Below are positions 2,093-55,218 of a stretch of DNA of 64,000 nucleotides, piece by piece; the first letter of the stretch is position 1; each line of letters starts with the position of its first letter. A model generated the notes under the pieces. That model was given only the letters and a program-made list of their open reading frames with translations. It made no database searches and had not been told where the DNA came from. This stretch comes from Elusimicrobiota bacterium (GTDB lineage Bacteria > Elusimicrobiota > Elusimicrobia > UBA1565 > UBA9628): positions 40,072-104,071 of the forward strand of contig JAKFCD010000074.1 of assembly GCA_036676805.1 (NCBI GenBank), in the 5' to 3' direction. The position numbers were made by a program, and so were the translations under genes.

Positions 2093-5000
2093 CTTTGCAC
2101 CGCGAACTTGATCGTGCGCCGCCCGCCGGCCCCTTCGACGACGGCGAGATAGACGCCGCTGGCCAGCGCGCGCCCGTCCCGGTCGGTGCCGTTCCAGTTC
2201 AGGACCTGGCCCGCGGCGTCGGCGTCGAGCTCCTTGAGCAGGCGCCCCGTCGCGGTGAAGATCTTGATCTTCGCCCCCGCGGGCAGGCTCGAGAGCTTGA
2301 TGTTCACGTGCCCGCGGCTCGGCCGGAACGGGTTGGGGAAGACGAAGCCCTCCGCGACCGAGGCTCCGGGGGTCTGCGCGACGATCTGAAACAGCGAGAA
2401 ATGGTCCGTCGTGCCGACGACCTGGCGCGTCGCCGTGTCGGCCGCGCTGTCGAGCACGACCCAGCCGGTGGCCGCGTCGTAGCGGGCCAGGCGCAGGTGA
2501 TCGGGGTTGACGCCCGCCACGGCGGCGGGGGTGTAGCCGATCTTGATCGTCACCGGGCTCGCGGGCTGAAGGCCGCCGGCGGTGACCGAGATCGTCACGC
2601 CGAGGGCGCTCAGGCCGGGCCGCGCCGGCAGCGCCGGGACGGCCGAGGCGCCGGGCACGGTCACCGAGATCGTCGCGGGCGAGGCGAAGCCTCCCTGGGG
2701 CACGATGACCTCCGCGGAGGTGCCGCCCGCGAGCGCGGTCGTGATGGTGGCCGTGGCGCCCGCCGTCAGGCTGACGAACGCCGGCGCGCCGAGGGCGTAG
2801 ATGCCGTCGGGGTCGGAGACCTCGGCGGTGACCACGCCGGTGACGGAGTCGATCGCGGTCACGCCGTCGATCACCTGCTCGAAGACGCTCGATGCCTGGT
2901 TGAGCTTGAAGATGCGCATGACCGACAGCGGAACCAGGATCGACTGAGCCCCGTAGGCGCCGACGCTGATGCTTCCCGAGGTGACCACATAGGGCATGCT
3001 GACCGTGACGAGCCTGCTGCCCGCGCCGGCGGCCGTGGTCGGGCTCGAGTCGCGCACGGCCGAGAGCTTGAGCACCGTGGTCGAGACGAAGGTGTTGGCC
3101 GTCGCCGCGAACGCGGCGGTCGTGAGCGCGAGGTCGGCGGCCGGCAGCTCGTCGCGGCCCTGGATGCCCAGGCGGACGGCGAAGCCGTAGGTGTTGGCCG
3201 GAATGTCCGCGCGCAGTAGGGGATTGGCGAAGTTCACGACCGCTCCGCCCGCCGAGGTGACGAGCACGGTGGAATAGACCGTCGTGTCCCGCGCCAGGCT
3301 GCCGAGCGAGGCGCGCAGGAGGTTGGCCTGGGCGCTGAGGCTGTTCGTCGAGGAGAAGAAGGCCGTGGTCTGGCCGAAGGCGTCGGTGACCGCCTGGGTC
3401 GACGTCACGGCGGAGACGACCGAGCCGTTGACCAAGGACAGCGAGACGACGCCCGAGCCGGTCGCCACGGAGAAGGTCGCCGTCGAGTTGGAGACGGGGT
3501 TCGAGAAGCCGTCGAAGATCGTCGCGGTCAGCACGCTCGGCACGCCGGCGATGCTGGACTGGGGGTTGGCGAGCAGGGTGATCGAGGCGGGAGTCCCCGC
3601 GCCGACGACGGCGCTGTAGGTGGAGCGCCCGACGACGGACGCGCCGGTGTCCGAGGCGTTGATCAGGATGGCCTCGGCTTTCGTGTAGGTCTGGTTGGCG
3701 ATCGTGACGACGCCGTTGGCCGGCATGTTGACGTTCGTGACGCCGAGCACGCCCGCGCCAGCGAGGAGCGGGTTGCCCGCGTTGAGCGCCGAGAGCGATA
3801 TCGTCGCGGCGTAGCCGACGACCTGGACGCTCGACGCATCGACGGCGCGCACCGTCATCGAGAACGGGACTCCGGCCTGCGCTCCCGTGGGGACCGTGAC
3901 GATGAAGTGGTCGGGGCCCTGGATCGTCAGCGGGATCGAGCGGCCGTTTTTGCCGTCGGATGAGCGGCTGGCCTTGATGTCGATGTCCTCGACCTTGTTA
4001 TAGGTCTGAGCGGAAATCTGGAAACGGCCCGCGGTGAAGGCTCCCGTGACGTTGGTTCCAAGCGAGCCCGTGCCCTGGACGTTCGTGCCGGCGAACAGGG
4101 CGACGAGGTTCACGCCGCTCTCGGTATAAGAGGACAAGCGGTGGTTATAGGAGTTCATGGCCGTGATCGTGCTGACGAAGGCCACGCCGACCGACACGGG
4201 CACCGTCGGGACCGAGACCTCGTAATGGTCGACGCGGTTGCTCTCGATCAGGAAGAAGCTCGTCGCGGCGGGCACGCTCAGCGGCACGAAGGTGACCTGA
4301 CCCGTGAAGTCGTCGAACGTGTCGTAGGCGGTCATTATCGATCCCAGCCGCAGGGTGAAGCTCGCCCGGCCGGAGGCGTCCGTCACCGCTCCCGCGAAAT
4401 CACCGGTGCCTCCGATCGCCGGATCCATCGCCAGCTTCTCGAACGCCGCGCCGCCCGCGCGCGTGAAGCTCGAGACCGCGACGGGCACGTTCGGGACGGG
4501 GTTGCTGAAGGCGTCGAGCACGGTGACCGTCATCGTGGCGTAGCGCAGTTCCGAGTCGACCGACGACGAGGACCTGTCGACGGTGAAGCTCGCGGCGCGG
4601 ATCTCCCGCGTGCCCGCGGTCTGGTCGGGTCGCTGGGGAACGCTGACGGTGTGCGACGAGCTGAAGTTGCCGTAGGCGGCGAAGGTGTGAGCCGCGCTGA
4701 AAGCGCTGCTCAGGATGTCTTGACGGATCGTGAAGACGGCTATTCCAAGCGAGCTCGTGGGCGCGCGGCCGATCGAGGCGAAGGCGCCGTCCCACCGTGA
4801 ATAGGTCGTGATCGCGCCGAAGTTCTGCGAGTTCAGGCCGACGGGGATCTGCGGCAGCAGGGCCCCGGCCGCGTCGCGGACCGTGACCGTGGCGGTGATC
4901 ACGCGCATCGAGCCCTGCATCACGGGCGGGCCCGTGGCGACGGTCACCGTGGCGACGCGTTCCTCCCGCAGCACGATGGTCTGGTCGGGGAAGCTCAGCA

Positions 5001-7332: not shown

Positions 7333-8972
7333 TGGAGGACCCCGGCCTTGATCAGAATCTTGGGCTCGACGACGAAGTCGATGCTGCGCCCGCCGAACTC
7401 GGAGGCGGTGATCTTCTGCTGGAAATTGTGCTCGATGAGCTTCTCTTTATACGTCGCCCCGCTCGTCACCCCGCTGAAGTCCGCCTTCGTGGCCACCCGC
7501 CCCTCGTCGGAGACGACGAAGAAGTCGTAGGTCTCGAAGGAGTTGTCCGCCGTGTACGTGATCGTGACGCGGTCGTGGAAGGTGCCGGCGCCCGACGGCT
7601 TGCTGATGACGCTGGTCCGCAGCGCGTCCTCGCACGCCTGCCCCGCGCAGACGTTGGTCCCGGCGCCGTTCCAGACGCGGGTGTTGATCCCGCCGACGGC
7701 GTAGTCATAGGAGGTGATGTTCGCCCCGGCCGCCGGCTGCCAGCCGAACTTCTCGGTCCCGTTGATCTTGTAGGAGTAATTGTCGAATAAGGTGGTCCAG
7801 AAGGCGGTCCCGGCCGTCTCCGTGGTGAAGGTGTTGGTCTGCCCGTCATAGGCGACCCGGTCGGCCGCGAGCGGCGCGTTGACGAGGTGCCCGCCGATGC
7901 CGGTCTCGATGACGGTGTCCCGGGTGTTGGAGCGGCCGGTCTCGAACTCGGTGACGAAGTACTCGGGAGCGGCGCCGGACTTGCCCGTCAGGTGGCGCGT
8001 CGCCGCCGTCAGGTCGGCCGGCAGGTCCTGGTTGAAGCGGGCCTGGTAGTAGAAGTAGTCGAAGCGATCGGCGCGCTCGGAGAGCGCTACGAGCTTGAAT
8101 TGGTCGGCGGCGGGGCGCACGACGTACTCCTCGAGGCGCACGCGCACGCCGAAGGCGTCGATGAGGGTCTTGCCCTCCTGGTATTCGGCCCGGCGGGCCT
8201 CGACGGCGGCGGCGGCCTGGACGGCCTCCTTGGACTGCCCCAGAGCGACTTCCCGCTCGACCTCCTTGCGGAACTCGTCGTCGACCGAGAGGGGGGCGCT
8301 CGTTTCCTTCTGTTCCTTCGGTTTGCGGACGGCGGCGATGATCTTGGGCGCCGGAGCGGCTTTCGGGGCGGGAGCCTTGGCGGGTGGGGCGGCGGCGGCG
8401 CGCTCGGCCGCGCGCTCGAGGGGCTGGTCGGGCAGGACCCGGATCGAGCGCATCGTGCGCCCGTCGCCGAGCTCGATCTCCTCGCCGAGCAGGGTCTTGA
8501 CCCCGACGACGCCCTCGCTGACGTCGATCAAGGTCGCGCGCGAGGCCGCGACGTCCACCGAGAACTGCGTGCCCCGCACCGCGCACACCGCGGTCGGGGT
8601 GCGGACCTGGAAGCGGCGGTTCAGGGACTTGGTGACCCAGGCCTTGAGCGTGCCCAGAGCGAGCTTGAAATGGGCCGGGCCGCCGGCCTCGGCCGAGGAC
8701 TCCGCCTCGAATTCCGAGGACGCCCCCAAGAGAATCTTCGAGCCGTCCCGGGTCTCCAGGGCGGCCGTCGACCCGCCTCCCGTGCGCACCTTGTCGCCTT
8801 TCTGCACGCGCCAGGGAACTTCGTTGACCCGGCTCCAGGACTGGGTGCGCGGCAGGAAGACCTCGACGTTGCCCTGCCGGGCGACGATGTCGACCTGGGC
8901 CCGGGAGGCCGTCGCGATGATAAGAGCGGCGATCGCGGGGAGGAGGACCCGCAATCTGAGGGGCGAATTCAC
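7329..8972 (-). CDS. FecR-domain secreted protein (N-terminal FecR fold, Ala/Pro/Lys-rich linker, C-terminal domain of unknown function)
   Basis: 547 aa with a signal peptide (MNSPLRLRVLLPAIAALIIATASRAQV). The FecR-like block reads WRVQKGDKVRTGGGSTAALETRDGSKILLGASSEF...AVRGTQFSVDV. Its stop overlaps the start of the giant protein (ATGA). Confidence 0.65.
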   Translation of the reverse strand: MNSPLRLRVLLPAIAALIIATASRAQVDIVARQGNVEVFLPRTQSWSRVNEVPWRVQKGDKVRTGGGSTAALETRDGSKILLGASSEFEAESSAEAGGPAHFKLALGTLKAWVTKSLNRRFQVRTPTAVCAVRGTQFSVDVAASRATLIDVSEGVVGVKTLLGEEIELGDGRTMRSIRVLPDQPLERAAERAAAAPPAKAPAPKAAPAPKIIAAVRKPKEQKETSAPLSVDDEFRKEVEREVALGQSKEAVQAAAAVEARRAEYQEGKTLIDAFGVRVRLEEYVVRPAADQFKLVALSERADRFDYFYYQARFNQDLPADLTAATRHLTGKSGAAPEYFVTEFETGRSNTRDTVIETGIGGHLVNAPLAADRVAYDGQTNTFTTETAGTAFWTTLFDNYSYKINGTEKFGWQPAAGANITSYDYAVGGINTRVWNGAGTNVCAGQACEDALRTSVISKPSGAGTFHDRVTITYTADNSFETYDFFVVSDEGRVATKADFSGVTSGATYKEKLIEHNFQQKITASEFGGRSIDFVVEPKILIKAGVLQ

Positions 8973-9028
8973 CCGTGAAGTATAAGGGGGGCTTCCGGGG
9001 GTGTCAATGTCGTAAAAGTTACGAGAAG

Positions 9029-9055
9029 CCCCCCGGCCGCTTAGCGGCCGGGGGG
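9029..9055. terminator. GC-rich hairpin terminator downstream of cspA
   Basis: Perfect 12-bp stem CCCCCCGGCCGC / GCGGCCGGGGGG with a 3-nt loop, 20 nt after the cspA stop. On the cspA (minus) strand it is followed by a moderately T-rich tract. Confidence 0.55.
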
Positions 9056-9075
9056 CTGTTCTACCGGGCTCCGAG

Positions 9076-9276
9076 TTAGAGCTTGACGACGCCGGCGGCC
9101 TTCGGGCCCTTGTCGGTCTGAAGGAGATCGTACTGGACGGCCTGGTTCTCGCTCAAGGAGCGGAATCCGTCGGACTGGATCGCGCTGTGATGCACGAACA
9201 CGTCCGCGCTGCCGTCATCGGGGGTGATGAACCCGAAGCCCTTCTGGTCATTGAACCACTTCACTTTGCCTTGCAT
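9076..9276 (-). CDS. cspA: cold-shock protein, CspA family
   Basis: [66 protein letters not shown] is 66 aa with the RNP1/RNP2 motifs. The true start is the internal Met of the 104-aa table ORF. Confidence 0.95.
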
Positions 9277-9354
9277 GCTTGTACACCTCGTATTGCGACG
9301 TGTGCGGGCCCCTCGGCGAGGCCTTCTCGACGACGAATCGGCGAGAACCGACAA

Positions 9355-9383
9355 AATTATACCACGAGGCCTTAGTCCGTCAA
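9355..9383 (-). promoter_or_regulatory. sigma70-type promoter for cspA (-35 TTGACG, 16-nt spacer, -10 TATAAT) followed by a ~70-nt 5' UTR
   Basis: The minus strand reads cTTGACGgactaaggcctcgtggTATAATtttgtcgg. The -10 maps to 9355-9360 and the -35 to 9378-9383 on the + strand (reverse complement). An AT-rich upstream region (9390-9518) follows, as expected for a csp leader and promoter. Confidence 0.55.
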
Positions 9384-9518
9384 GTACCATTTGTTACTGA
9401 TAGGGGCATTTATTTTGGCACCCTTCGGAGGTCCTAGAAAAGACCTATAAGCGGGATCATAATAGGCCTCATCAACGCTTAATGGACGCGAAAGGAGTGA
9501 AATACGCCGAAAAGGCTC

Positions 9519-9980
9519 TTATTTCGCGGTTTGGCGGGCTTTGCGGCGGGCTTCGGCGGCCGCCCAACGCTTCTTCTCGTCCGGCGTTTCCACGAGAAGA
9601 GGCGGGATGGGGGCGGGGCGGCCGTGCTCGTCCACGGCGACCATGGTGACGAGGCAGGTGTTGGTGTGGACCCGGCTGCCGCCGGGCATGTCCTCGGCGT
9701 AGACCTCGACGCCGATCTCCATCGAACTGCGGCCGGTGTGGTTGACCTGGGCCTTGGCGATCAGGAAGGTGCCCACGTGGATGGGGACCAGGAACTCGAC
9801 GCGCTCCATGGCCACGGTCACGCAGGGTTTGCCCGAGTGGCGCATGGCGCACACCGAGGCGGCCTTGTCCACCATCTGCAGGACCTTGCCGCCGAAGACG
9901 GTGCCGTGCATGTTGGCGTCCGGGGGGAACATCAGGTCGGCGACGTCGGAGACGGAGTCGCGTGAGGGCTTAGCGGTCAT
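9519..9980 (-). CDS. acyl-CoA thioesterase (hotdog fold, YciA-like)
   Basis: 153 aa. HGTVFGGKVLQMVDKAASVCAMRHSG...VTVAMERVEFLVPIHVGTFL is typical of YciA-type thioesterases. Confidence 0.8.
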   Translation of the reverse strand: MTAKPSRDSVSDVADLMFPPDANMHGTVFGGKVLQMVDKAASVCAMRHSGKPCVTVAMERVEFLVPIHVGTFLIAKAQVNHTGRSSMEIGVEVYAEDMPGGSRVHTNTCLVTMVAVDEHGRPAPIPPLLVETPDEKKRWAAAEARRKARQTAK

Positions 9981-10754
9981 AGAGTCTCGGCCGGCGGTCC
10001 TCGAAGAGGTCGCAGGCGGGATGGACCTTCTTGTTCTTGGCCGTCCAGGCGTCGATCGTGACGACCGCCGCGGCCGGCTGCTCGGGACCGAGGCGGACGA
10101 GCAGGGTGCCGTTGGGGGAGACCATCTGGGACTGGCCGATGTAGCGCAGGCCGCGCTCGACTCCGACCCGGTTGGCCGTCGCGGAGAAGACCCGGTTCTC
10201 CAGCGAGCGGATCTTCATCCCCTCGGGCGCCCACGGGAGGACCAGGTTCGAGGGGTGGGCGATGATCTCGGCCCCCTTGAGGGCCAGGGTCCGGGCGGCC
10301 TCGGGGAAGAACCAGTCGAAGCAGACCATCACGCCGACCGACACGCCCTTGACCTTCTCGGTCCAGAAGCCCGTGTCGCCGGGCGCGAAGAACTTCTTCT
10401 CGCCGCCGAACAGGTGGGTCTTGCGGTAGACCCGGCTCTTGCCGCCCTGCGCCAGGACCGCCGAGTTGTACAGCTTCGAGCCCGCTTTCTCGGGGAAGCC
10501 CGCGACGATGGCGCAATCGCGGCTCGCGGCGTAGGCGCGCAGCAAGCCGACCAGCGGGCCGCTCGCCGTCTCGGCGCACTTCGCCGCTTCCTTCTTGTTC
10601 TTGAAGTTGTACCCGGAGGCGAAAAACTCGGGAAGCACCCAAAGGTCGGCCTCCTGCCTGTCCATCAGCTCGAAGCACGCCTTGAGGTTCTGCGGCGCCT
10701 TGAGGAACTTCGGCGAATTTTGCACGACCCCGAGTCGAAATTCCATGGCGGCCA
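9970..10754 (-). CDS. carbon-nitrogen hydrolase family protein (nitrilase superfamily)
   Basis: MEFRLGVVQNSPKF...VLPEFFASGYNF...RKTHLFGGEKKFFAPGD...VGVMVCFDWFFPE carries the Glu, Lys and Cys catalytic-triad context. The table ORF starts at a TTG inside the palindromic element, so I prefer the MAAMEF Met near 10754 (within about 3 nt). Confidence 0.75.
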
Positions 10755-10767
10755 TCGTATCAAAAAT

Positions 10768-10839
10768 AGGGGTCAGACCTCCCGTTGTTGCAATGCCGGG
10801 GTCTGACCCCAACAACGCAACAACGGGAGGTCTGACCCC
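10768..10839. promoter_or_regulatory. array of three 13-bp palindromes GGGGTC(A/T)GACC(C/T)C at about 30-bp spacing, with flanking inverted repeats, in a divergent promoter region
   Basis: Copy 1 ggggtcagacctc (10768-10780), copy 2 ggggtctgacccc (about 10798-10810) and copy 3 gaggtctgacccc (10827-10839). Copy 3 is the exact reverse complement of copy 1. tcccgttgttgc and gcaacaacggga form a further inverted pair. The array lies between the divergent nitrilase-family and methyltransferase genes. Confidence 0.5.
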
Positions 10840-10860
10840 TTAAATTTATAGAATCCGCGG

Positions 10861-11682
10861 GTGAGCAAGAAAGAGGCGCTGTCCTGGTGGCGGATGCACC
10901 TCGAGGACGACCCTCGGCGGCCCCACTCCCAGGTCAAGACGCAGATCGACGGCGTGGAGCGCTTCATGCGCCTGGAGCCGCGCTCGCGCGTGCTCGACCT
11001 CGGCTGCGGCTCGGGGCGGCGCACCATCGAGCTCGCCCGGCGGGGCCACCGGGTCCTCGGCGTGGACCCCGACGAGCGCGCCCTCGCCGTCGCGCGGGCC
11101 TCGGCCAAGGGCGAGAAGCTCAACGTCCACTTCATGAAGGCCGACACGCGCGCGATCCCTTACCGCGGCGAGATCGACGCCGTGGTGAGCCTCGACGGCG
11201 CCTTCGGCCAGCTGGCCAACGACCGCGACGACCTGCGCTGCCTCGAGGCCGCGCGCAAGGCGCTGAAGCCCTCCGGGCTTCTCCTGCTCGATACGCTTAA
11301 TAAGGAATGGCTCATGCGCCACTTCGAGCCTAACTACTGGGAGCAGGGCGAGGAGCGCAAGAGCTCGGTCGTGCTCGACCGGATCGGCTTCGACTTCGAG
11401 CGCGGGCGCCTGGACAACCGCCGCGTCATCGTCGACGCCGACGGCACGCGCACCCCTTCGTTCATCAGCGTGCGGGTCTACGCGCTGACCGAGCTCAAGG
11501 CCCAGCTCGAGCGCGCGGGCCTGAAGTATCTCCAGAGCTGGGGCGCCTTCGACGGCTCGGCCTACGGCATGGACAGCGCCCGGACGATCGTGCTGGCCGA
11601 GCGTCCCCCGGAGCGCTCGACGAAGCCCGCCGACCCCGACGAGCCGCCGACCGCGATCCGCATCAAGGGGCGCAAGAGGTGA
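10861..11682 (+). CDS. class I SAM-dependent methyltransferase
   Basis: 273 aa with a GTG start. It carries the VLDLGCGSGRRTIELARRGHRVLGVDPDERAL motif I. Its stop overlaps the next gene (GTGA). Confidence 0.85.
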   Translation: MSKKEALSWWRMHLEDDPRRPHSQVKTQIDGVERFMRLEPRSRVLDLGCGSGRRTIELARRGHRVLGVDPDERALAVARASAKGEKLNVHFMKADTRAIPYRGEIDAVVSLDGAFGQLANDRDDLRCLEAARKALKPSGLLLLDTLNKEWLMRHFEPNYWEQGEERKSSVVLDRIGFDFERGRLDNRRVIVDADGTRTPSFISVRVYALTELKAQLERAGLKYLQSWGAFDGSAYGMDSARTIVLAERPPERSTKPADPDEPPTAIRIKGRKR

Positions 11683-48964: not shown

Positions 48965-50035
48965 ATGGAAATCGGCATCGTCGGTCTGCCCAACGTCGGA
49001 AAGTCCACCATCTTCAACGCATTGACCTCCGGTAATGCGGCGGCTTCCAATTACCCGTTCACGACCATCGAGCCGAACGTGGGCGTCGTCGGCGTTCCCG
49101 ATCCGAGGCTGCAGCGCCTGACCGAACTGGCCAAGCCCAAAAAAACGATCCCCGCCTCCTGCCGTTTCGTCGATATCGCCGGTTTGGTGAAAGGCGCCGC
49201 CTCCGGCGAAGGTCTCGGCAACAAATTCCTGGCCAACATCCGCGAAGTCGACGCCATTCTCCATATGGTCCGCCTGTTCCAGGACCCGGACGTCATTCAT
49301 ACCATGGGCGGCGTGGACTTCAAGCGGGATATAGACGTCATCGAGACCGAGCTGATGCTCGCCGATCTCGAGAGCATCTCCAAGCAGTACGACAAGGTCT
49401 CCGGCAAGGCCAAGTCGGGCGACAAGGCCGCCAAGGAGGCGATGGTCGTGCTCGACGCCCTCAAGGGCGGCCTCGAGGCGGGCAAGCCCGCTCGCGCCCT
49501 CGGCCTCGACGCGAAGTCGCTTGGCGACTTCGCCCTCTTGACCGCCAAGCCCGTCCTCTACGTCGGCAACACCGACGAGAATCCCGATCCCGCGACGCTC
49601 GCGGAGTTCAAGTCCTTCACCGCGGCCCGCGGCTCCGAGTCCGTCGTGATCTGCGGCAAGCTCGAGAGCGAGATCGCCCAGCTCTCCGGCGAGGACCGCG
49701 AGATGTTCATGAGGGAGCTCGGCATGAAGCAGAGCGGCCTCGAGACCGTCATCGTCGGCGCCTACAAGACCCTCGGCCTCTGCTCCTACTTCACCGTCGG
49801 CGTCGAGGAGGTCCGCGCCTGGACCATCCGCGTCGGAGACAAGGCCCCGCGCGCCGCGGGCGTCATCCACACCGACTTCGAGAAAGGCTTCATCAAGGCC
49901 GACATTTACGGCTACTCCGACATCGACAAGCTCGGCTCCGAGGCCGCGCTGCGCGAGAAGGGCCTCATCCGTTCCGAAGGCAAGGAGTACACGGTCAAAG
50001 ATGGCGACATCTGCCACTTCAAGTTCGCCAACTGA
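48965..50035 (+). CDS. ychF: ribosome-binding ATPase YchF
   Basis: 356 aa. It has [18 protein letters not shown] (G1), the NxxE motif and the C-terminal TGS domain. Confidence 0.95.
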
Positions 50036-51203
50036 AGCCTCGTTGCTTTGCCGGCATTTCGGCACGTGTGGCGGCTGCTCCCTCCAAGACAAGCCTTACG
50101 ACGTTCAGCTCGTCCTGAAGAAAGAAAAAGTCCTCGCAGCCTTGGCGGGCTTCGAGGGCCTTCCCGCTCCATCCCTCATCGGCGCCCCCGACATCTGGAA
50201 CTACCGCAACAAGATGGAGTTCAGCTTCGGCGACGTATACCCTCCCGTTGAGGGCAAATGGCTCAAGCTGGGCATGAAGCCCAAGGGCCGCTGGTACGAG
50301 ATCCTCGACCTCCAGGAATGCCGCCTCCCCAGCCCCGAGGCGGCCAAGCTCCTCGCCTCCGTGCGCGCCTGGGCCGAACGCGAGAAGGTCCCTCCGTACA
50401 ACTCCCATAAGAAGGTGGGCGTGCTGCGCCATCTGGTCATCCGCGAGGCCAAGAACCGCCCCGAGCGGATGGTCCTGCTGGTCACGACGGACGGGAATAT
50501 CCCCAAGGCTTCCTTTATAGAAGCCGTGCAGGCGGTCTATCCCGCGACGACCGTCCTCCTCGGCTCCAACGCCAAGGAGTCCGACACCGCGATCTCGGAC
50601 TCGATGGAAACCTTGATGGGGCAGGGCTTCATCACGGAAACGCTGTACTTCCCCGACGGCGCCGTCGACTACCGCATCTCTCCGCACTCCTTCTTCCAGA
50701 CCAACACCAAGGGCACCGAGGCGCTGTACGGCCTGCTGCGTTCCTGGACGCGCGAGCTTGCGGACACGAGCGCGGTTCTCGACCTGTACTGCGGCGGCGG
50801 CGGCATCGCGCTGTCGCTGGCGGGGGCGGCGCGCAAGGTCGTCGGCGTCGAGCTCAACGCCTCGGCCGTGGCCGACGCGAAGGCCAACGCCGAGCGCAAC
50901 GGATTCAAGAACTGCGAGTTCTACTGCGCCCCCGTCGAACTGCTCCTGCCGTCCTTGCTCGACATGCGGCCGCAGGCCGTCATCGTCGACCCGCCCCGCG
51001 CGGGCCTGCACGCGAAGGCCTCCGCGACCTTGCTTGAGATGGCGCCGCCGCTGATCTTCTACGTCTCCTGCAATCCCGAGTCGCTGGCCCGCGACCTCAA
51101 AGTCCTCGAGCCGAAGTACGCCGTCGACCGCCTCGTCGTGGTCGACCTCTTCCCCCACACGGACCACGTCGAGACCGTCGTCCGCCTCGTGCCCCGCGGG
51201 TAA
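50001..51203 (+). CDS. RumA/RlmD-family 23S rRNA (uracil-C5)-methyltransferase with an N-terminal 4Fe-4S cluster
   Basis: It has CRHFGTCGGC (Cys cluster), FFQTN, LDLYCGGGGIAL (motif I) and DPPRAG. ATG 50001 overlaps ychF by 35 nt. TTG at 50043 is an alternative start. Confidence 0.85.
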   Translation: MATSATSSSPTEASLLCRHFGTCGGCSLQDKPYDVQLVLKKEKVLAALAGFEGLPAPSLIGAPDIWNYRNKMEFSFGDVYPPVEGKWLKLGMKPKGRWYEILDLQECRLPSPEAAKLLASVRAWAEREKVPPYNSHKKVGVLRHLVIREAKNRPERMVLLVTTDGNIPKASFIEAVQAVYPATTVLLGSNAKESDTAISDSMETLMGQGFITETLYFPDGAVDYRISPHSFFQTNTKGTEALYGLLRSWTRELADTSAVLDLYCGGGGIALSLAGAARKVVGVELNASAVADAKANAERNGFKNCEFYCAPVELLLPSLLDMRPQAVIVDPPRAGLHAKASATLLEMAPPLIFYVSCNPESLARDLKVLEPKYAVDRLVVVDLFPHTDHVETVVRLVPRG

Positions 51204-51252
51204 TCTTTCTTATCCCCTTGCCGACGGCGCCCGTTCCCGCTATCCTTGGGCC

Positions 51253-51846
51253 ATGCCTCTTCGATTTATTCTCGGCTTTCTGCTCAGCGCCTTTCTCGCC
51301 AACGCGGCTCCTGCCAAAGAATCCGCGAACGATAAATCTGCGACATCGAAATCGACGGTGAAGAGCAAGGAAAAAAACAAACCTGCCAAACAAAAGGTTT
51401 CTCGGACCTGGATGACGGTCGTCGATTACGTTCTTGCCAATGGGATGGGAAGAACTCTGAAGGCACCCCTCACCAAAAATCTGAAATTCGAATCAGATGC
51501 GGTTAGCACAAAGGCGCTTCGCTACAAGCTCGGCGATTCGCCTGACAAGAAGAACCATGCGTTCTATGTGGTCTTCACGGGAAATGAGGATGGAAAACTT
51601 GTTCCCAAAGAATTTGTTGTTGGCAGCGCCTTCGTCGTCAAAAATGACGATGCCAAGTCGGTTGAAGATTTTTTCCTGCGTGTCGATTTGAATGGAAACA
51701 TTGTTGCAGCGGTCAGCAGCAAAGGCCCGTCGGGGAAAGTGATCGAGACCATTCATCCGCCGGATTCGCAAGAAGCCCTCACGGCTCTTAAAGCCGAGAA
51801 ACTGCTACATCTGAAAACCATGGATCTCGAGAAGCTGAGCAAATGA
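51253..51846 (+). CDS. Lys-rich secreted protein encoded in a low-GC island (hypothetical)
   Basis: 197 aa with a signal peptide (MPLRFILGFLLSAFLANAAPA). The gene is about 48% GC against a ~70% background. The codon pattern is still coding-like. Its stop overlaps the next start (ATGA). Confidence 0.6.
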   Translation: MPLRFILGFLLSAFLANAAPAKESANDKSATSKSTVKSKEKNKPAKQKVSRTWMTVVDYVLANGMGRTLKAPLTKNLKFESDAVSTKALRYKLGDSPDKKNHAFYVVFTGNEDGKLVPKEFVVGSAFVVKNDDAKSVEDFFLRVDLNGNIVAAVSSKGPSGKVIETIHPPDSQEALTALKAEKLLHLKTMDLEKLSK

Positions 51847-53033
51847 AACCGCTCATTATTGCCGCGCTTTTATTCGTGAGTGCAGGTCGCGCGCAGGATG
51901 ACGGATGGGCCGAGGATTTGCGGAATGATCAGCAAGAAGTCGAACAGCTTGCCCGTGACGCAAAGGTCCCCGGCATCACTCCCGAAACCGCGTCGGAGCT
52001 CGAGCGACAGCGGTTGGAATCTGTAAAGAGAATCGAAACGATCGCCGATAATCGCCCCGACAATCCCGCCGCCCAGCTCGCCGTCGGCAAAAGCCTCGCC
52101 TCCGTCGAGGAAGCCCCGCGCGCCATCCCCTACGCCGAGCGCGGCCTGGCGCTCGCGGAGAGCTCCGGCGATCCGAAGCTGGTCCGGGAGGCCTTGCTGA
52201 CCGGCTCCGAGGTCTACGCCAAAGCGGGGCGCTACGATCTGGCGCGCGAGCGGGCGGAGCGCGTGCTGAAGACGAACCCTCGCGACAAGGACGCGCTCGC
52301 TCTGTACATGCAGGTCAAAGGCCGTGGGGCTGCCTCGGCGGCTTCGCCTACCGGCGGCAAGACGGCAGGCGCTTACGGTGCGGCCGGCTCGGCCTCTGCC
52401 GGCGCCCCCGCGGCGGCCGCCCCCGGCGCGGCGATGACGAGCCCCGCCTCGCTCGAGGCGCGCAAGCAGATCGCGCTCGGCTGGAGCCGCATCAAGCTCG
52501 ACCCGGCGGCGGCGCTCAAGAGCTTCGAGGCCGCGATCACCGCGGATCCGATGAACGCCGCGGTGCGCGTGCAGCGCTCGAAGGCGCGCCTGGCGGCGGG
52601 CGATTTCCCCGGGGCGCTCGGAGACTCCGACGACGCGATCAGGATGGACCCGAGGCTAGGCGAGGCCTACGCCGCCCGCGCCGAGGCCAAGCGCGCCCTG
52701 GGCCGCGCGGAGGCCGAGCTCGTCACCGACTACGAGGCGGCGGCGAACCTGGACGGACGCTTCGCCGAGGCGTACAAGGCGGTCGTGACGCGTCTTTCGG
52801 CTTCAGCCGAAGGGGGCGCTAGCGCAAGCGGCCCCGGCGACGGCTCGACGGCGGCCGGGCTGCCCCCGCCCGGCGGGCCGCTCGGGCTCTTGGCGCGGTC
52901 GCCCAAGAAGTGGGGCCTGATCGCCCTGTTGTGCGTGCTCGCCGCGCTCGCGGGCGGCCTGTTCGCCCCGCTTCTGCTCAAGAGGCGGCGCTCCCCGGAC
53001 GCGGGCGCCCCTACGCCGACGCCGCGACCCTAG
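51843..53033 (+). CDS. TPR-repeat protein with a signal peptide and a C-terminal membrane anchor
   Basis: 396 aa. TPR-like helices include AYAARAEAKRALGRAEAEL. The C-terminus reads WGLIALLCVLAALAGGLFAPLLL. The first ~230 nt are low GC; the rest is ~75% GC. Confidence 0.7.
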   Translation: MKPLIIAALLFVSAGRAQDDGWAEDLRNDQQEVEQLARDAKVPGITPETASELERQRLESVKRIETIADNRPDNPAAQLAVGKSLASVEEAPRAIPYAERGLALAESSGDPKLVREALLTGSEVYAKAGRYDLARERAERVLKTNPRDKDALALYMQVKGRGAASAASPTGGKTAGAYGAAGSASAGAPAAAAPGAAMTSPASLEARKQIALGWSRIKLDPAAALKSFEAAITADPMNAAVRVQRSKARLAAGDFPGALGDSDDAIRMDPRLGEAYAARAEAKRALGRAEAELVTDYEAAANLDGRFAEAYKAVVTRLSASAEGGASASGPGDGSTAAGLPPPGGPLGLLARSPKKWGLIALLCVLAALAGGLFAPLLLKRRRSPDAGAPTPTPRP

Positions 53034-53071
53034 GGTTATCTCCGACCTAGCTACCGCCCCCGGCGATACGG

Positions 53072-53077
53072 TATAAT
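53072..53077 (+). promoter_or_regulatory. -10 box TATAAT upstream of tRNA-Arg
   Basis: ggTATAATcc lies 20 nt upstream of the mature tRNA 5' end. The -35 is weak. Confidence 0.4.
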
Positions 53078-53097
53078 CCCGCGTCGGGCCGTCGATT

Positions 53098-53170
53098 GCG
53101 CTCGTAACACAAAGGATAGTGTCCCGCCCTGCGAAGGCGGGTATCCAGGTTCGATTCCTGGCGAGCGCAA
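53098..53170 (+). tRNA. tRNA-Arg, anticodon read as GCG (CCA not encoded)
   Basis: Hand-folded cloverleaf. Acceptor GCGCTCG/CGAGCGC, 7 of 7 pairs. D-stem ACAC/GTGT with G18G19 and A20. Anticodon stem CCGCC/GGCGG with loop CTGCGAA (U33, GCG, A37). T-arm CCAGG-TTCGATT-CCTGG. Discriminator A73. Confidence 0.85.
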
Positions 53171-53191
53171 TGGACGGCCCGCCTTTTTTTA
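53160..53191 (+). terminator. rho-independent terminator after the tRNA (hairpin plus T7 run)
   Basis: ggcgagc-gcaatggacg-gcccgcc is followed by ttttttt. It uses part of the acceptor 3' strand. A second hairpin cgcgag...ctcgcg follows at 53194-53218 for the convergent minus-strand gene. Confidence 0.5.
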
Positions 53192-55218
53192 AAGCGCGAG
53201 GGCGGGCAGAAGGCTCGCGTGCTGGTCGGTCCAGGCCGCCGCGCGAGAGGGTCCCACGCCCAGGGCGCGCCACCCCCGCTTCTCGACGAGCGTATCGATC
53301 GCCGCCGCGTCGCGGCTGACGGCCACCCACACCGACGGCACGCTGCCTCCGCCGGGAACGCCCGCGGACAGCTGGCGCTTGGCGGCGGCGGAGAGGCCGA
53401 GGTCGCGCGCCGCCGCGCCGAGCACCGGGCGCAGGTCGAGGTAGCGGTTGGAGACGTGCACGAGGATCACGCCGTCCGGCTTGAGGCGGCCGAGGTAGGA
53501 GGCGAAGGCTTCCTTGGTGAGCAGGTGAATGGGGATGGAGCCGCTGCTGAAGGCGTCGAGTATGAGGCCGTCGTAGGAGGCGCCCTCGGCGCGCTCGAGG
53601 GAGAGCCGGCCGTCGCCGGTCACGACGCGGACCGTGGACGCGCTGCGGCTCAGGTAGGTGAAGGAGCGCTCGGCGATGACGGCCACGTCGGGGTCGAGCT
53701 CGTAGAAGTCCATCGCCATGCCGGGGCGGCCGTAGGCGGCGAGGCTGCCCGCGCCGAGGCCGACGACGCTGACGGTGGTCCACCGGGCGCCGAGCGCCTG
53801 CCACGCCTCCCCGAGGGGGGAGTCGTAGCCGTAATAGGACAGCGGCTCGTCCTGCCGGGCGGGGTCGAGAAATTGCATGCCGTGCTCGGTGTTCCCGTGG
53901 AACATGCTGCGTACGCCCTCCTCGTCGCGGACCGAGTAGACGCCGTAGAAATTGCGCAGGCTGTAGACGGCGCCGGAGCGGGTGCCCGCCGCGCCGATCG
54001 CGCCGGCGACGGTCAGCGCCAGGACGCCCAGCGCCGCCGTCGCCTTGCGGTTCGCGACGACCTGCTCCCAGTCCCGCGCGAGGATCGCGGCGACGGCCGC
54101 GGCCGCGACGGCCGCCCAGTCCAGGGCCACCGCGCCGACGCCGCGGCCCAGAAACGGCACCGCGAGCGCGATGAGCACGCTGCCGAACAGGCCGCCCGCG
54201 GCGATCCAGCTGTAGTACTCGGCCATCGCACGCTCCGACGAGGGACGCGCGACGGCGAGCGAGCGGTGGAAGATCATGCAAAGCGCGAAGAGAGCGAAGA
54301 GCATGTAGCCGAACTTGCCGACGTCGAGCGCGCGGCTCAGGATCTGGGCCGGGGTCGCATCCTGGGCGAACCAGAAGGCGAGGCCGAAAGGGACCAGGCA
54401 CAGCGCGAGCCAGAAGGCGAAGGCCGGGAGCATCGCCCGGTTCAGGCGCTCGGGATACCAGGGCTCGCGCTTGAAGTTGAGGACGAAGGTGAGCAGATAG
54501 GTCGCGAGCGGGGCCGTCCAGAGCAGGGGCACGGCGGCGAAATCCAGGCTAAGGAGATTCGTCGCGGCGAGCAGCGCCGCGCAGGGCGCGGCGCTGAGCA
54601 GCAGCCACAGCGCGCGCTGCCGCGGCGACGGGGCGGGACCCGAGGAGGACGGGGCGGGCGCGGGACCTCGGGGGGCGCAGAAGAAGCACAGCGCCGCGTA
54701 CGCGGCGTAAAGGCCGCGCCAAAGCCAGCCTTGGGCGCTCAGGGCGAGCAGAGGCTCGATGGCGAGCGGATAGGCGACCAGCGCGCAGGCCGCGCCCGCG
54801 TTGGAGGCGGCGAACAGGAAGTAGCCGTCGGCGCGCTCCGCGCACGATGTCCTCATAAGCCAGCTCTGGGCGACCACGACCGTCGTCGAGAGGACGAAGA
54901 ACGGCGGGCCGACCGAGAGGAGCAGAGCCAGGAAAAGCTCGGCGAAAGGAGCCGAGGCCGCGGGCGCGGCCGGCAGAGCCAGGGGGAGGAAGAAGAATGG
55001 AATGGCGAGCGCGACGGCGTGCGCGCGCGGGTGAAGGCGCGCCCGGCGGCCGTAGAGGTAGGCCGCGAGCAGCAGGGCTTGAAAAAACATCATCGCGCCG
55101 GTCCATACGTAGGCGCTGCCGCCGAAGCGGGGCAGGAGCAGCTTGGCGGCGGCCAGCTCCAGGCAGAAGGCGAGGAAGGAGCCGAGGAACGCGAGGGCCT
55201 GGAAACGCAGTCTCTGGG
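53189..55218 (-). CDS. fused polytopic membrane domain plus C-terminal spermidine-synthase-like (PABS fold) protein
   Basis: About 10 TM helices, then VVGLGAGSLAAYGRPGMAMDFYELDPDVAVIAERSF...RVVTGDGR...YDGLILDAFSSGSIPIHLLTKEAF. The start is uncertain: TTG near 55218, or a downstream ATG (MMFFQ) at about 55059. The table start 55387 runs into the AT-rich promoter region and the divergent gene. Confidence 0.7.

Follow-up and report, generated by a model that had tools for sequence, protein, structure and literature searches.

In the agr locus of Staphylococcus aureus, variation in agrB/agrD/agrC forms a contiguous hypervariable segment with discrete allelic groups in an otherwise conserved operon (PMC10482373). 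Similarly, in the comQXP locus of Bacillus subtilis, comQ and comX vary jointly with the 5' end of comP, and this polymorphism, whose segment ends inside the receptor gene, underlies separate recognition groups (PMC6334282). In this study, we undertook a computational analysis of a locus with a comparable layout in a 64-kb stretch of DNA, hereafter the window, from an Elusimicrobiota bacterium (assembly GCA_036676805.1, contig JAKFCD010000074.1, positions 40,072 to 104,071). The element of interest is a low-GC island of 0.8 kb, which covers the gene of a small secreted protein (SSP), a 197-residue open reading frame (ORF), and the start of the adjoining gene for a tetratricopeptide repeat (TPR) protein; the locus in the window is referred to as W. 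Comparison of W with related loci showed that the variants of this cassette are many old allelic lineages, exchanged or retained. We consider it probable that the island is the hypervariable core, always present, of a two-gene module conserved within a clade of Elusimicrobia and laid out like the pheromone-receptor specificity cassettes.

As in agr, the variable segment takes in the whole of a small gene, for an exported product, and the neighbouring portion of the gene that encodes a membrane-bound partner, and the boundary inside the larger gene is positioned as in comQXP. The components differ, however. The agr system has a short cyclic peptide, a processing enzyme and a histidine kinase, whereas here the exported product has a predicted folded domain of 145 residues and its partner, a TPR scaffold, has one C-terminal membrane helix and lacks a kinase; agr has no sequence or fold relationship to the SSP/TPR pair, the likeness being in layout only. 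The comQXP locus encodes an isoprenyl transferase, a peptide pheromone and a sensor kinase with a Gram-positive cytoplasmic signalling output, whereas nothing at the SSP/TPR locus indicates quorum sensing. Among the features of a pherotype locus, the layout of the variable segment was found, but a histidine kinase with a response regulator and a small processed peptide were not. By analogy, we claim for the SSP/TPR locus a resemblance to agr and comQXP in architecture, not membership.

Two other kinds of variable loci are relevant for comparison. In the CdiA-CT/CdiI and Rhs-CT/RhsI systems, a variable module, often of lower GC, lies across a gene boundary at a conserved motif and is exchanged as a cassette, its variable part being a C-terminal toxin domain that is followed by the immunity gene. 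The SSP/TPR cassette likewise extends over the junction of two genes and is bordered by a sharply conserved motif, but in it the small gene precedes the large one, what varies in the larger protein is an N-terminal helical hairpin, and no toxin domain was recognised in the variable end by searches of Pfam, NCBIfam and PADLOC. Replacement islands of Pseudomonas aeruginosa (pilA with an accessory gene, the pyoverdine receptor region, O-antigen), and likewise marine replacement flexible islands, lie at the same place in all genomes in very divergent versions, are usually of low GC and several kb, comprise whole genes and have envelope-exposed products. The SSP/TPR locus shares with them its constant place in all genomes, very divergent versions, atypical composition, predicted envelope-exposed products, a divergence far above that of the flanks (which are 89-93% identical) and a conflict between allele and flank phylogenies (in W and the loci L011, L002 and L010). 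In contrast, its unit is only 0.8 kb, it ends inside an ORF, and its low GC at third codon positions (GC3) is documented as stable across deep divergence. From a recent genomic island it differs in that there is no mobility gene beside the island in W, the only flanking inverted repeat (12 nt) is unique to W, and searches of phages, plasmids and viral contigs yielded no copy.

Hypervariability and age of the cassette alleles

The features of the locus in the window are as follows, protein structure and promoter-like features being predicted.

50001-51203: rumA-like methyltransferase gene, upstream of the island, GC3 0.88
51214..51249, + strand: left anchor, promoter-like block CCCCTTGCC-N8-CC-GTTCCCGCTATCCT-TGG, from conservation across loci
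51248..52041: hypervariable segment, coinciding with the low-GC island
51253..51846, + strand: SSP gene, 197 residues, GC3 0.556, studied through homologues, dN/dS and an AlphaFold model
~51253-51306, + strand: hydrophobic signal-like N-terminus of SSP
~51307-51408, + strand: Lys-rich disordered tail of SSP
51409-51843, + strand: globular alpha+beta domain of SSP, 145 residues
51843-53033, + strand: whole TPR gene, overlapping the SSP stop codon (ATGA)
51843..52067, + strand: variable N-part of the TPR protein, codons 1-75, signal-like peptide and two-helix hairpin (residues 22-40 and 47-70), GC3 0.56-0.64
52068..53033, + strand: conserved high-GC TPR body, from codon 76 on, GC3 0.92, studied with an AlphaFold model and Foldseek
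52068..52148, + strand: right anchor, TPR codons 76-102, AAQLAVGKSLASVEEAPRAIPYAERGL, the most conserved TPR stretch
52911-52988, + strand: transmembrane helix of the TPR protein, residues 357-382, then a short basic tail of 14 residues

A total of 15 related loci were examined, including remote family members, and all the data were metagenome-derived, with one locus from a complete genome. They include:

L002, L003, L007: SSP gene, then a TPR gene of ~390-418 residues
L008-L010: SSP and TPR pair, Elusimicrobia metagenome-assembled genomes (MAGs)
L011, L013, L014: SSP and TPR pair, L014 being from the complete genome CP096137
L015-L017: SSP and TPR pair, the three usable loci from a metagenome scan with a TPR alignment
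L025, L026: SSP and TPR pair, remote family members

Comparison of W with L011 revealed nucleotide identity of 91% up to position 51247 and of 89% from position 52042, with no blastn similarity between these points. The same pattern was found between W and L013 (gap at 51365-52038), and L002 and L010 are 92-94% identical on both sides of a mature SSP and TPR codons 1-78 that are unalignable. At the protein level, the TPR bodies of W and L011 have 90% amino-acid identity, versus 36% for SSP and 31% for the TPR N-part, and the corresponding values for L002 and L010 are 87, 36 and 24%. The rate of synonymous divergence (dS) between W and L011 is 0.24 in the TPR body and at least 1.9, or not computable, in the island, and a like contrast was obtained for L002-L010, L002-L015 and L010-L015. 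Saturation of the island against a dS of ~0.24 in the flank indicates that the alleles are older than their flanks, rather than faster-mutating or merely adaptively diverging. Local hypermutation is contradicted by W and its closest relative L003, which share an allele class and whose island dS (0.37-0.39) is close to that of the body (0.31), dS being 0.26-0.44 throughout. Within an allele class, both parts of the cassette are under purifying selection at a normal synonymous rate; between W and L003 dN/dS was 0.21-0.26 for the island, compared to 0.25 for the TPR body and 0.10 for rumA.

The alleles also have a history that differs from that of the surrounding sequence. By SSP identity W belongs with L002 (61%) and L011 with L010 (51%), whereas the TPR body places W with L011 and L002 with L010 (68% between W and L002), a four-taxon conflict with the SSP grouping. 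Island and flank phylogenies conflict in this manner in two clades, with allele classes cutting across flank clades, which means that whole cassettes have been exchanged by flank recombination or retained across speciation. The two parts of the cassette co-vary (Mantel r=0.68, p=0.0003), versus correlations of 0.29 and 0.27 for each with the body. In 42 homologues the mean pairwise identity of the TPR protein is 0.33 in residues 21-75 versus 0.72 in the next domain, and their N-parts sort into recognisable classes. A preliminary description of W, made from its sequence, had regarded the TPR gene as chimeric; this mosaic was borne out, the N-part having a history different from that of the body, and the recombinational N-terminal swap that it had offered as an explanation matches what the comparisons of close relatives show.

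The variable unit has the same position in all the loci. The SSP gene and the TPR gene were adjacent, and mostly ATGA-coupled, in the 15 loci, and in every one the SSP gene and the first ~50-75 TPR codons were lower in GC3 than the rest. The mean GC3 was 0.566 for SSP (standard deviation, SD, 0.06) and 0.862 for the TPR body (SD 0.07), with 0.16 the smallest gap between them, and outside the variable unit the TPR gene had a GC3 of 0.75-0.93 across lineages. A low-GC3 segment at the homologous position persists down to SSP identities of ~20-30%. Absence from the same site in relatives, as expected of a genomic island, was therefore not found, the segment being present in 15/15 loci. The preliminary description had proposed recent horizontal acquisition and had itself remarked that the same segment in relatives, at the same place and with the same boundaries, would point instead to an ancient, ameliorated feature. 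Recent acquisition is contradicted by the 15 loci, in which the segment ends at the same point of the TPR gene, and amelioration by a GC3 that stays near 0.57 in all lineages and by balanced polarised synonymous changes.

The compositional shift itself is well defined. In W the GC content is 0.475-0.55 in 200-nt windows across 51200-51999, compared to 0.686 for the whole window, and the lowest 800-nt window (0.511, starting at 51241) is 6.0 SD under the mean of the other 800-nt windows. The next-lowest 800-nt value is 0.600, at 8791-9590, where there is no ORF of at least 120 residues between ~8985 and ~9470. The GC drop sits at synonymous positions. Rare codons, defined as those that make up <10% of their synonymous family in neighbouring genes, represent 30% of island codons versus 7.1% in those genes, and include a TTA in the TPR signal peptide. 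Composition and codon usage are atypical, a feature of recently acquired genomic islands (GC 0.51 versus 0.69, z = -6). Several elements of the preliminary description stood in these analyses, namely an abrupt shift (GC and GC3 windows have sharp edges), a downstream boundary within the TPR gene after ~75 codons (the GC3 step is at codon 76) and the ATGA coupling of the two genes (an overlap at 51843-51846 read in the sequence).

The cassette lies between the promoter-like block and an invariant KSLASVEEAPRAIPYAERGL motif. The core of the left anchor, TTGCC-N8-CY-GTTCCCGCTATCCT, was invariant upstream of the SSP gene in eight aligned loci, and the exact pattern was found in 14 fetched loci, with two copies in L011/L012, and once in the window, where none is expected by chance. 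It reads as a -35 element TTGCCG, a 17-nt spacer and a -10 element TATCCT, and it ends 6 nt before the SSP ATG with no Shine-Dalgarno sequence. Its match to the sigma-70 consensus of Escherichia coli is 8/12, and an E. coli-type promoter scan makes no call. On these sequence features, the block may be a promoter that gives a leaderless or nearly leaderless mRNA. The right anchor has an amino-acid identity of 0.81-0.96 between clades. Nucleotide-level constraint was considered for it and rejected, since identical codons are no more frequent in it (0.65-0.74) than in conserved stretches elsewhere in the gene (0.74-0.76 at codons 211-230), and protein constraint explains its conservation. Right breakpoints were constant across the compared pairs, and left breakpoints varied, lying at the block in W/L011 and past the signal peptide in W/L013 and L002/L010.

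Three devices for generating variation were tried as explanations and rejected. A perfect 12-nt inverted repeat, TTGCCGACGGCG / CGCCGTCGGCAA, flanks the island in W (51218-51229 / 52079-52090), as in an invertible or site-specific element, but it is missing from all 12 other loci checked and, being unique to W, is most likely due to chance. Silent donor cassettes were discounted because the anchor block occurs only once in the window. For a diversity-generating retroelement, no repeat pair turned up in the island or its surroundings (a reverse transcriptase was not sought across the whole window), and unlike the targets of such elements the alleles differ throughout (20-35% amino-acid identity) and not at adenine-templated positions.

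Proposed function, low GC content and rival explanations

Under our reading of the island as the core of a two-gene module, the module would consist of a Sec-type SSP, with its Lys-rich tail and 145-residue alpha+beta domain, and a translationally coupled periplasmic TPR protein with a C-terminal membrane anchor, and the variable unit would be the mature SSP and the first ~75 TPR codons (signal peptide and N-terminal helical hairpin). SSP may bind its own TPR partner through the variable hairpin, at the tip that lies away from the membrane, and diversifying or frequency-dependent selection on cognate recognition would keep many specificities (e.g., in relation to phage, competitors or kin discrimination). 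Deeply diverged alleles would rarely form heteroduplex, so that GC-biased gene conversion (gBGC), or an equivalent, would be weak inside the cassette, and with so weak a GC-raising force AT-biased mutation would set its composition. From the sequences and models we infer that SSP and the TPR hairpin are a cognate binding pair; if so, they would form a recognition system with an arrangement that has until now been known from the peptide pheromone loci of Firmicutes. It is possible, but rather doubtful, that the pair represents a new folded-protein-ligand/TPR-receptor system of self/non-self recognition ("pherotype") in Elusimicrobia, under frequency-dependent selection and with low GC3 as a read-out of gBGC.

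Several observations weigh against this reading of the island. Co-variation of adjacent segments is expected from linkage alone, and L011 pairs a B-like SSP with a different TPR N-part, a partial uncoupling. Charge complementarity is a weak trend that is suggestive only, the SSP tail being always +3 to +7 and the TPR N-part mostly -2 to -7, with two at 0 and one at +2. The TPR protein lacks a signalling domain, which limits the analogy with receptors to architecture. Strict balancing selection needs alleles that coexist in one population, and the data are assemblies of different populations, with flanks 87-93% identical; lateral exchange and trans-species retention of ancient alleles cannot be separated in these sequences. 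With regard to composition, the island GC3 of L015 and L017 is higher (0.71-0.80), and in L002/L010, where the conserved flank takes in the SSP gene up to about nt 110, that part still has a fairly low GC3 (0.60-0.72).

The composition of the island looks to be near equilibrium, as polarised synonymous changes comprised 10 AT->GC and nine GC->AT in the island, compared to four AT->GC and 18 GC->AT in the TPR body (52068-53030; W versus L003, L011 and L013). The GC->AT excess in the body is the non-equilibrium pattern described for GC-rich bacteria. Together, the balanced island changes and AT-biased body changes fit an AT-biased mutational input that acts against a GC-raising force which is weak in the island. 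A link between recombination and GC content has been described for bacteria (PMC4450053), and we prefer, less firmly than the allelic history, an explanation of the low GC by reduced recombination-linked GC pressure where alleles are too diverged for heteroduplex. Fast protein evolution alone is not the cause of the low GC3 since equally variable Ala/Gly linkers of the TPR protein keep a GC3 of 0.88-0.96. A lowly expressed native gene, the other alternative in the preliminary description, cannot account for a GC3 step within a single ORF; both sides of the step share a transcript and an expression level, so that expression-linked codon selection cannot explain the pattern in the TPR gene. The correlation between island and host GC3 was weak and non-significant (r=0.43, p=0.11, n=15), and cassettes circulating via lower-GC hosts are possible. 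The locus provides a clean natural test of whether GC3 in GC-rich bacteria is kept up by recombination-linked conversion or by selection.

Other explanations of the island must be weighed against these findings. That a 0.8-kb fragment was recently acquired from a low-GC donor and is still unameliorated would agree with the atypical composition and codon usage and with a tRNA-Arg gene 64 nt downstream of the TPR gene, but it is highly improbable given the homologous low-GC3 segment, with the same position and end point, in all 15 loci, and the lack of any amelioration trend in the polarised synonymous changes. In addition, there is no integrase or transposase next to the island in W and there are no conserved flanking repeats, searches of phage, plasmid and viral collections (including IMG/VR) yielded no copy and no phage family was matched in PHROGs, and the pair is not tRNA-adjacent in other clades. 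A chimera of two organisms' DNA from assembly or binning is a concern with metagenome assemblies, from which all the data derive. We give it virtually no credence, as the same junctions occur in independent assemblies from different samples and sources (L003, L011-L013, L002, L010 and the complete genome CP096137), which shows that the island is not an assembly artefact; L001 is identical to W, and reading frames continue through both junctions. Rapid divergence in place without recombination, under positive selection or relaxed constraint and with AT-biased mutation lowering GC as a by-product, would be in keeping with the island being the most variable protein part of the locus and with the AT bias of recent synonymous changes in the flank. 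It is nevertheless very unlikely, since selection on proteins cannot yield saturated dS in the island beside ~0.24 in the flank of the same genome pairs, and local hypermutation is excluded by the near-equal island and flank dS of W and L003. Moreover, the same allele classes recur in different flank clades, dN/dS values of 0.2-0.26 within a class mean that constraint is not relaxed, and hypervariable linkers stay high in GC3.

Two further explanations concern function. A polymorphic toxin-immunity or effector-immunity module, like CdiA-CT/CdiI or Rhs tips, would account for a variable low-GC module that crosses a gene boundary and abuts a sharply conserved motif, and for the many allelic forms whose two parts co-vary. 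We regard it as improbable in view of the absence of any match to a toxin, immunity or defence family (Pfam, NCBIfam, PADLOC), of secretion-system genes adjacent to the pair, and of near-invariant or catalytic-type residues, glycines excepted, in the SSP family. Furthermore, the variable part of the TPR protein is a ~50-residue N-terminal helical hairpin and not a C-terminal enzymatic domain, and both proteins have Sec-type N-termini, so that both would be periplasmic. The preliminary description had also suggested that SSP could be effector- or immunity-like, an idea for which the analysis gave no support. Rather more room is left for direct selection of low GC, with hypervariability a separate matter, although we still think it the less likely cause; AT-rich or rare-codon sequence might, for regulation, allow a nucleoid protein to silence the genes, slow translation during export or folding, or keep a leaderless mRNA unstructured. 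It is favoured by a GC3 kept near 0.57 over very deep divergence, by the 30% of rare codons, including the TTA of the TPR signal peptide, and by the conserved promoter-like block that ends 6 nt before the ATG. However, synonymous sites are not conserved, island dS being at least at flank level, and any constraint would therefore act on composition only. The stretch also extends over ~270 codons of two genes, far past any signal peptide or initiation region. To our knowledge, no silencer is known for the phylum Elusimicrobiota. Rfam searches, at E ≤ 1 for positions 50500-53500 and at gathering score for the entire window, matched only the tRNA-Arg and no RNA family in the island. An antisense gene was likewise rejected, the minus-strand ORFs being short and synonymous sites not conserved.

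The two proteins and the neighbourhood of the pair

A profile search of 1.84 billion cluster representatives identified an SSP family of at least 150 clusters at 50% identity (E ≤ 1e-3), nearly all of 165-205 residues, in which both members with a taxon name are from Elusimicrobia. The family is without annotation or a known fold relative in the PDB. No family match was found in Pfam, NCBIfam, PADLOC, PHROGs or PDB sequences (two profiles for PDB), in agreement with the earlier statement that SSP has no recognisable family, and Foldseek found no fold relative in the PDB at E < 0.08. Alignment of homologues with 41-82% identity showed that the hydrophobic N-terminus, the Lys-rich tail and a body of 140 residues are conserved, consistent with the Lys-rich secreted protein proposed earlier, and the N-terminus is putatively of the Sec type. 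Such homology, together with the dN/dS values, marks the SSP and TPR ORFs as real genes. The AlphaFold model has pLDDT values >90 for residues 50-197 and <50 for residues 8-45, and predicts one helix, seven antiparallel strands and a C-terminal helix. Across 115 members the only near-invariant residues are glycines, and with this pattern SSP looks like a binder or structural protein rather than an enzyme, which argues for a predicted role in binding or structure rather than catalysis.

The TPR protein has 59 homologues, and those with a taxon name are likewise from Elusimicrobia. Its best Pfam match is TPR_19 (23.8 bits versus a cut-off of 25), and other TPR models were also below their cut-offs. 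In the AlphaFold model, 15 repeat-length helices form two domains, domain 1 at residues 75-158 and domain 2 at 201-324, separated by a disordered Ala/Gly linker (165-197) and followed by a second linker. The stacked helix-turn-helix superhelix of the TPR family was found in this model, for which Foldseek matched consensus TPR proteins (E 7e-8) among 150 matches at E ≤ 1e-3. The variable residues 22-70 model as a helical hairpin (pLDDT 94-97 for its helices) stacked on domain 1, at the end which, along the chain, is most distant from the C-terminal membrane helix. Only TPR repeats, one transmembrane helix and the tail were identified, with no kinase or response regulator in the protein or adjacent to it. 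Several N-part classes (B and C, with examples in P0038, P0035, P0013 and P0040) have a Cys closing the signal-like peptide, e.g., ..IAVC|RK.. and ..LSPC|RADD.., which the W class does not. Some TPR alleles might be lipoproteins, although these motifs depart from the canonical lipobox.

Gene callers appear to mis-place the starts of both genes within the low-GC stretch. The public annotation by NCBI (P0001) begins SSP at Met54, giving 144 residues (window 51412-51846), and several TPR homologues (P0030, P0044, P0057) are annotated as short forms of 293-316 residues. The start of the 197-residue SSP is backed by the homologue alignment and the conserved block ending 6 nt upstream. A practical consequence is that the public forms of 144 (SSP) and 313 residues (TPR) appear to be mis-started. 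More broadly, what seemed a foreign island has become a defined allelic cassette of 0.8 kb, with its anchors mapped, in a phylum of which hardly any members are in culture.

The genes next to the pair are rumA and alpha-2-macroglobulin in the group of W, and a secreted protein of 445-476 residues and FAA hydrolase/MgtE in other clades; this variation by clade indicates that the SSP/TPR pair is the conserved unit. The tRNA-Arg gene of W (53097-53170, + strand, anticodon GCG) is the only Rfam or ARAGORN match in the window. A tRNA lies beside the pair in W only, and in other clades an FAA-hydrolase gene overlaps the 3' end of the TPR gene. In L014 (CP096137), a Y1 (IS200-type) transposase gene at 10287-11189 lies 1.1 kb downstream of the TPR gene; it was not seen beside the pair in other loci.

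Two or three extra genes lie between rumA and the SSP gene in L011 (1332-3144), L003 (1340-2582), L013 (670-1927) and L016 (2065-3377), compared with an interval of 51204-51252 in W. They encode a paralogue of TPR domain 1 (209-317 residues) with a Cys-rich C-terminus, a membrane protein of 111-118 residues and sometimes a 170-residue ORF. The two copies of the promoter-like block in L011/L012 are at 1346-1374 and 3110-3138, and W aligns to the first copy and then runs straight into the SSP gene. W therefore looks like a deletion, which could have arisen by recombination between the two blocks. Locus L008 (JANOTL010000078.1) is a 3.5-kb contig labelled as a Pseudomonadota MAG; its order of SSP, TPR, FAA-hydrolase and MgtE genes as in Elusimicrobia loci and its 92% nucleotide identity to L005 make it probable that it was mis-binned. 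In L026, a gene for a 348-residue ankyrin-repeat protein (487-1533, GC3 0.52) is ATGA-coupled upstream of the SSP gene, and the low-GC stretch there spans three genes.

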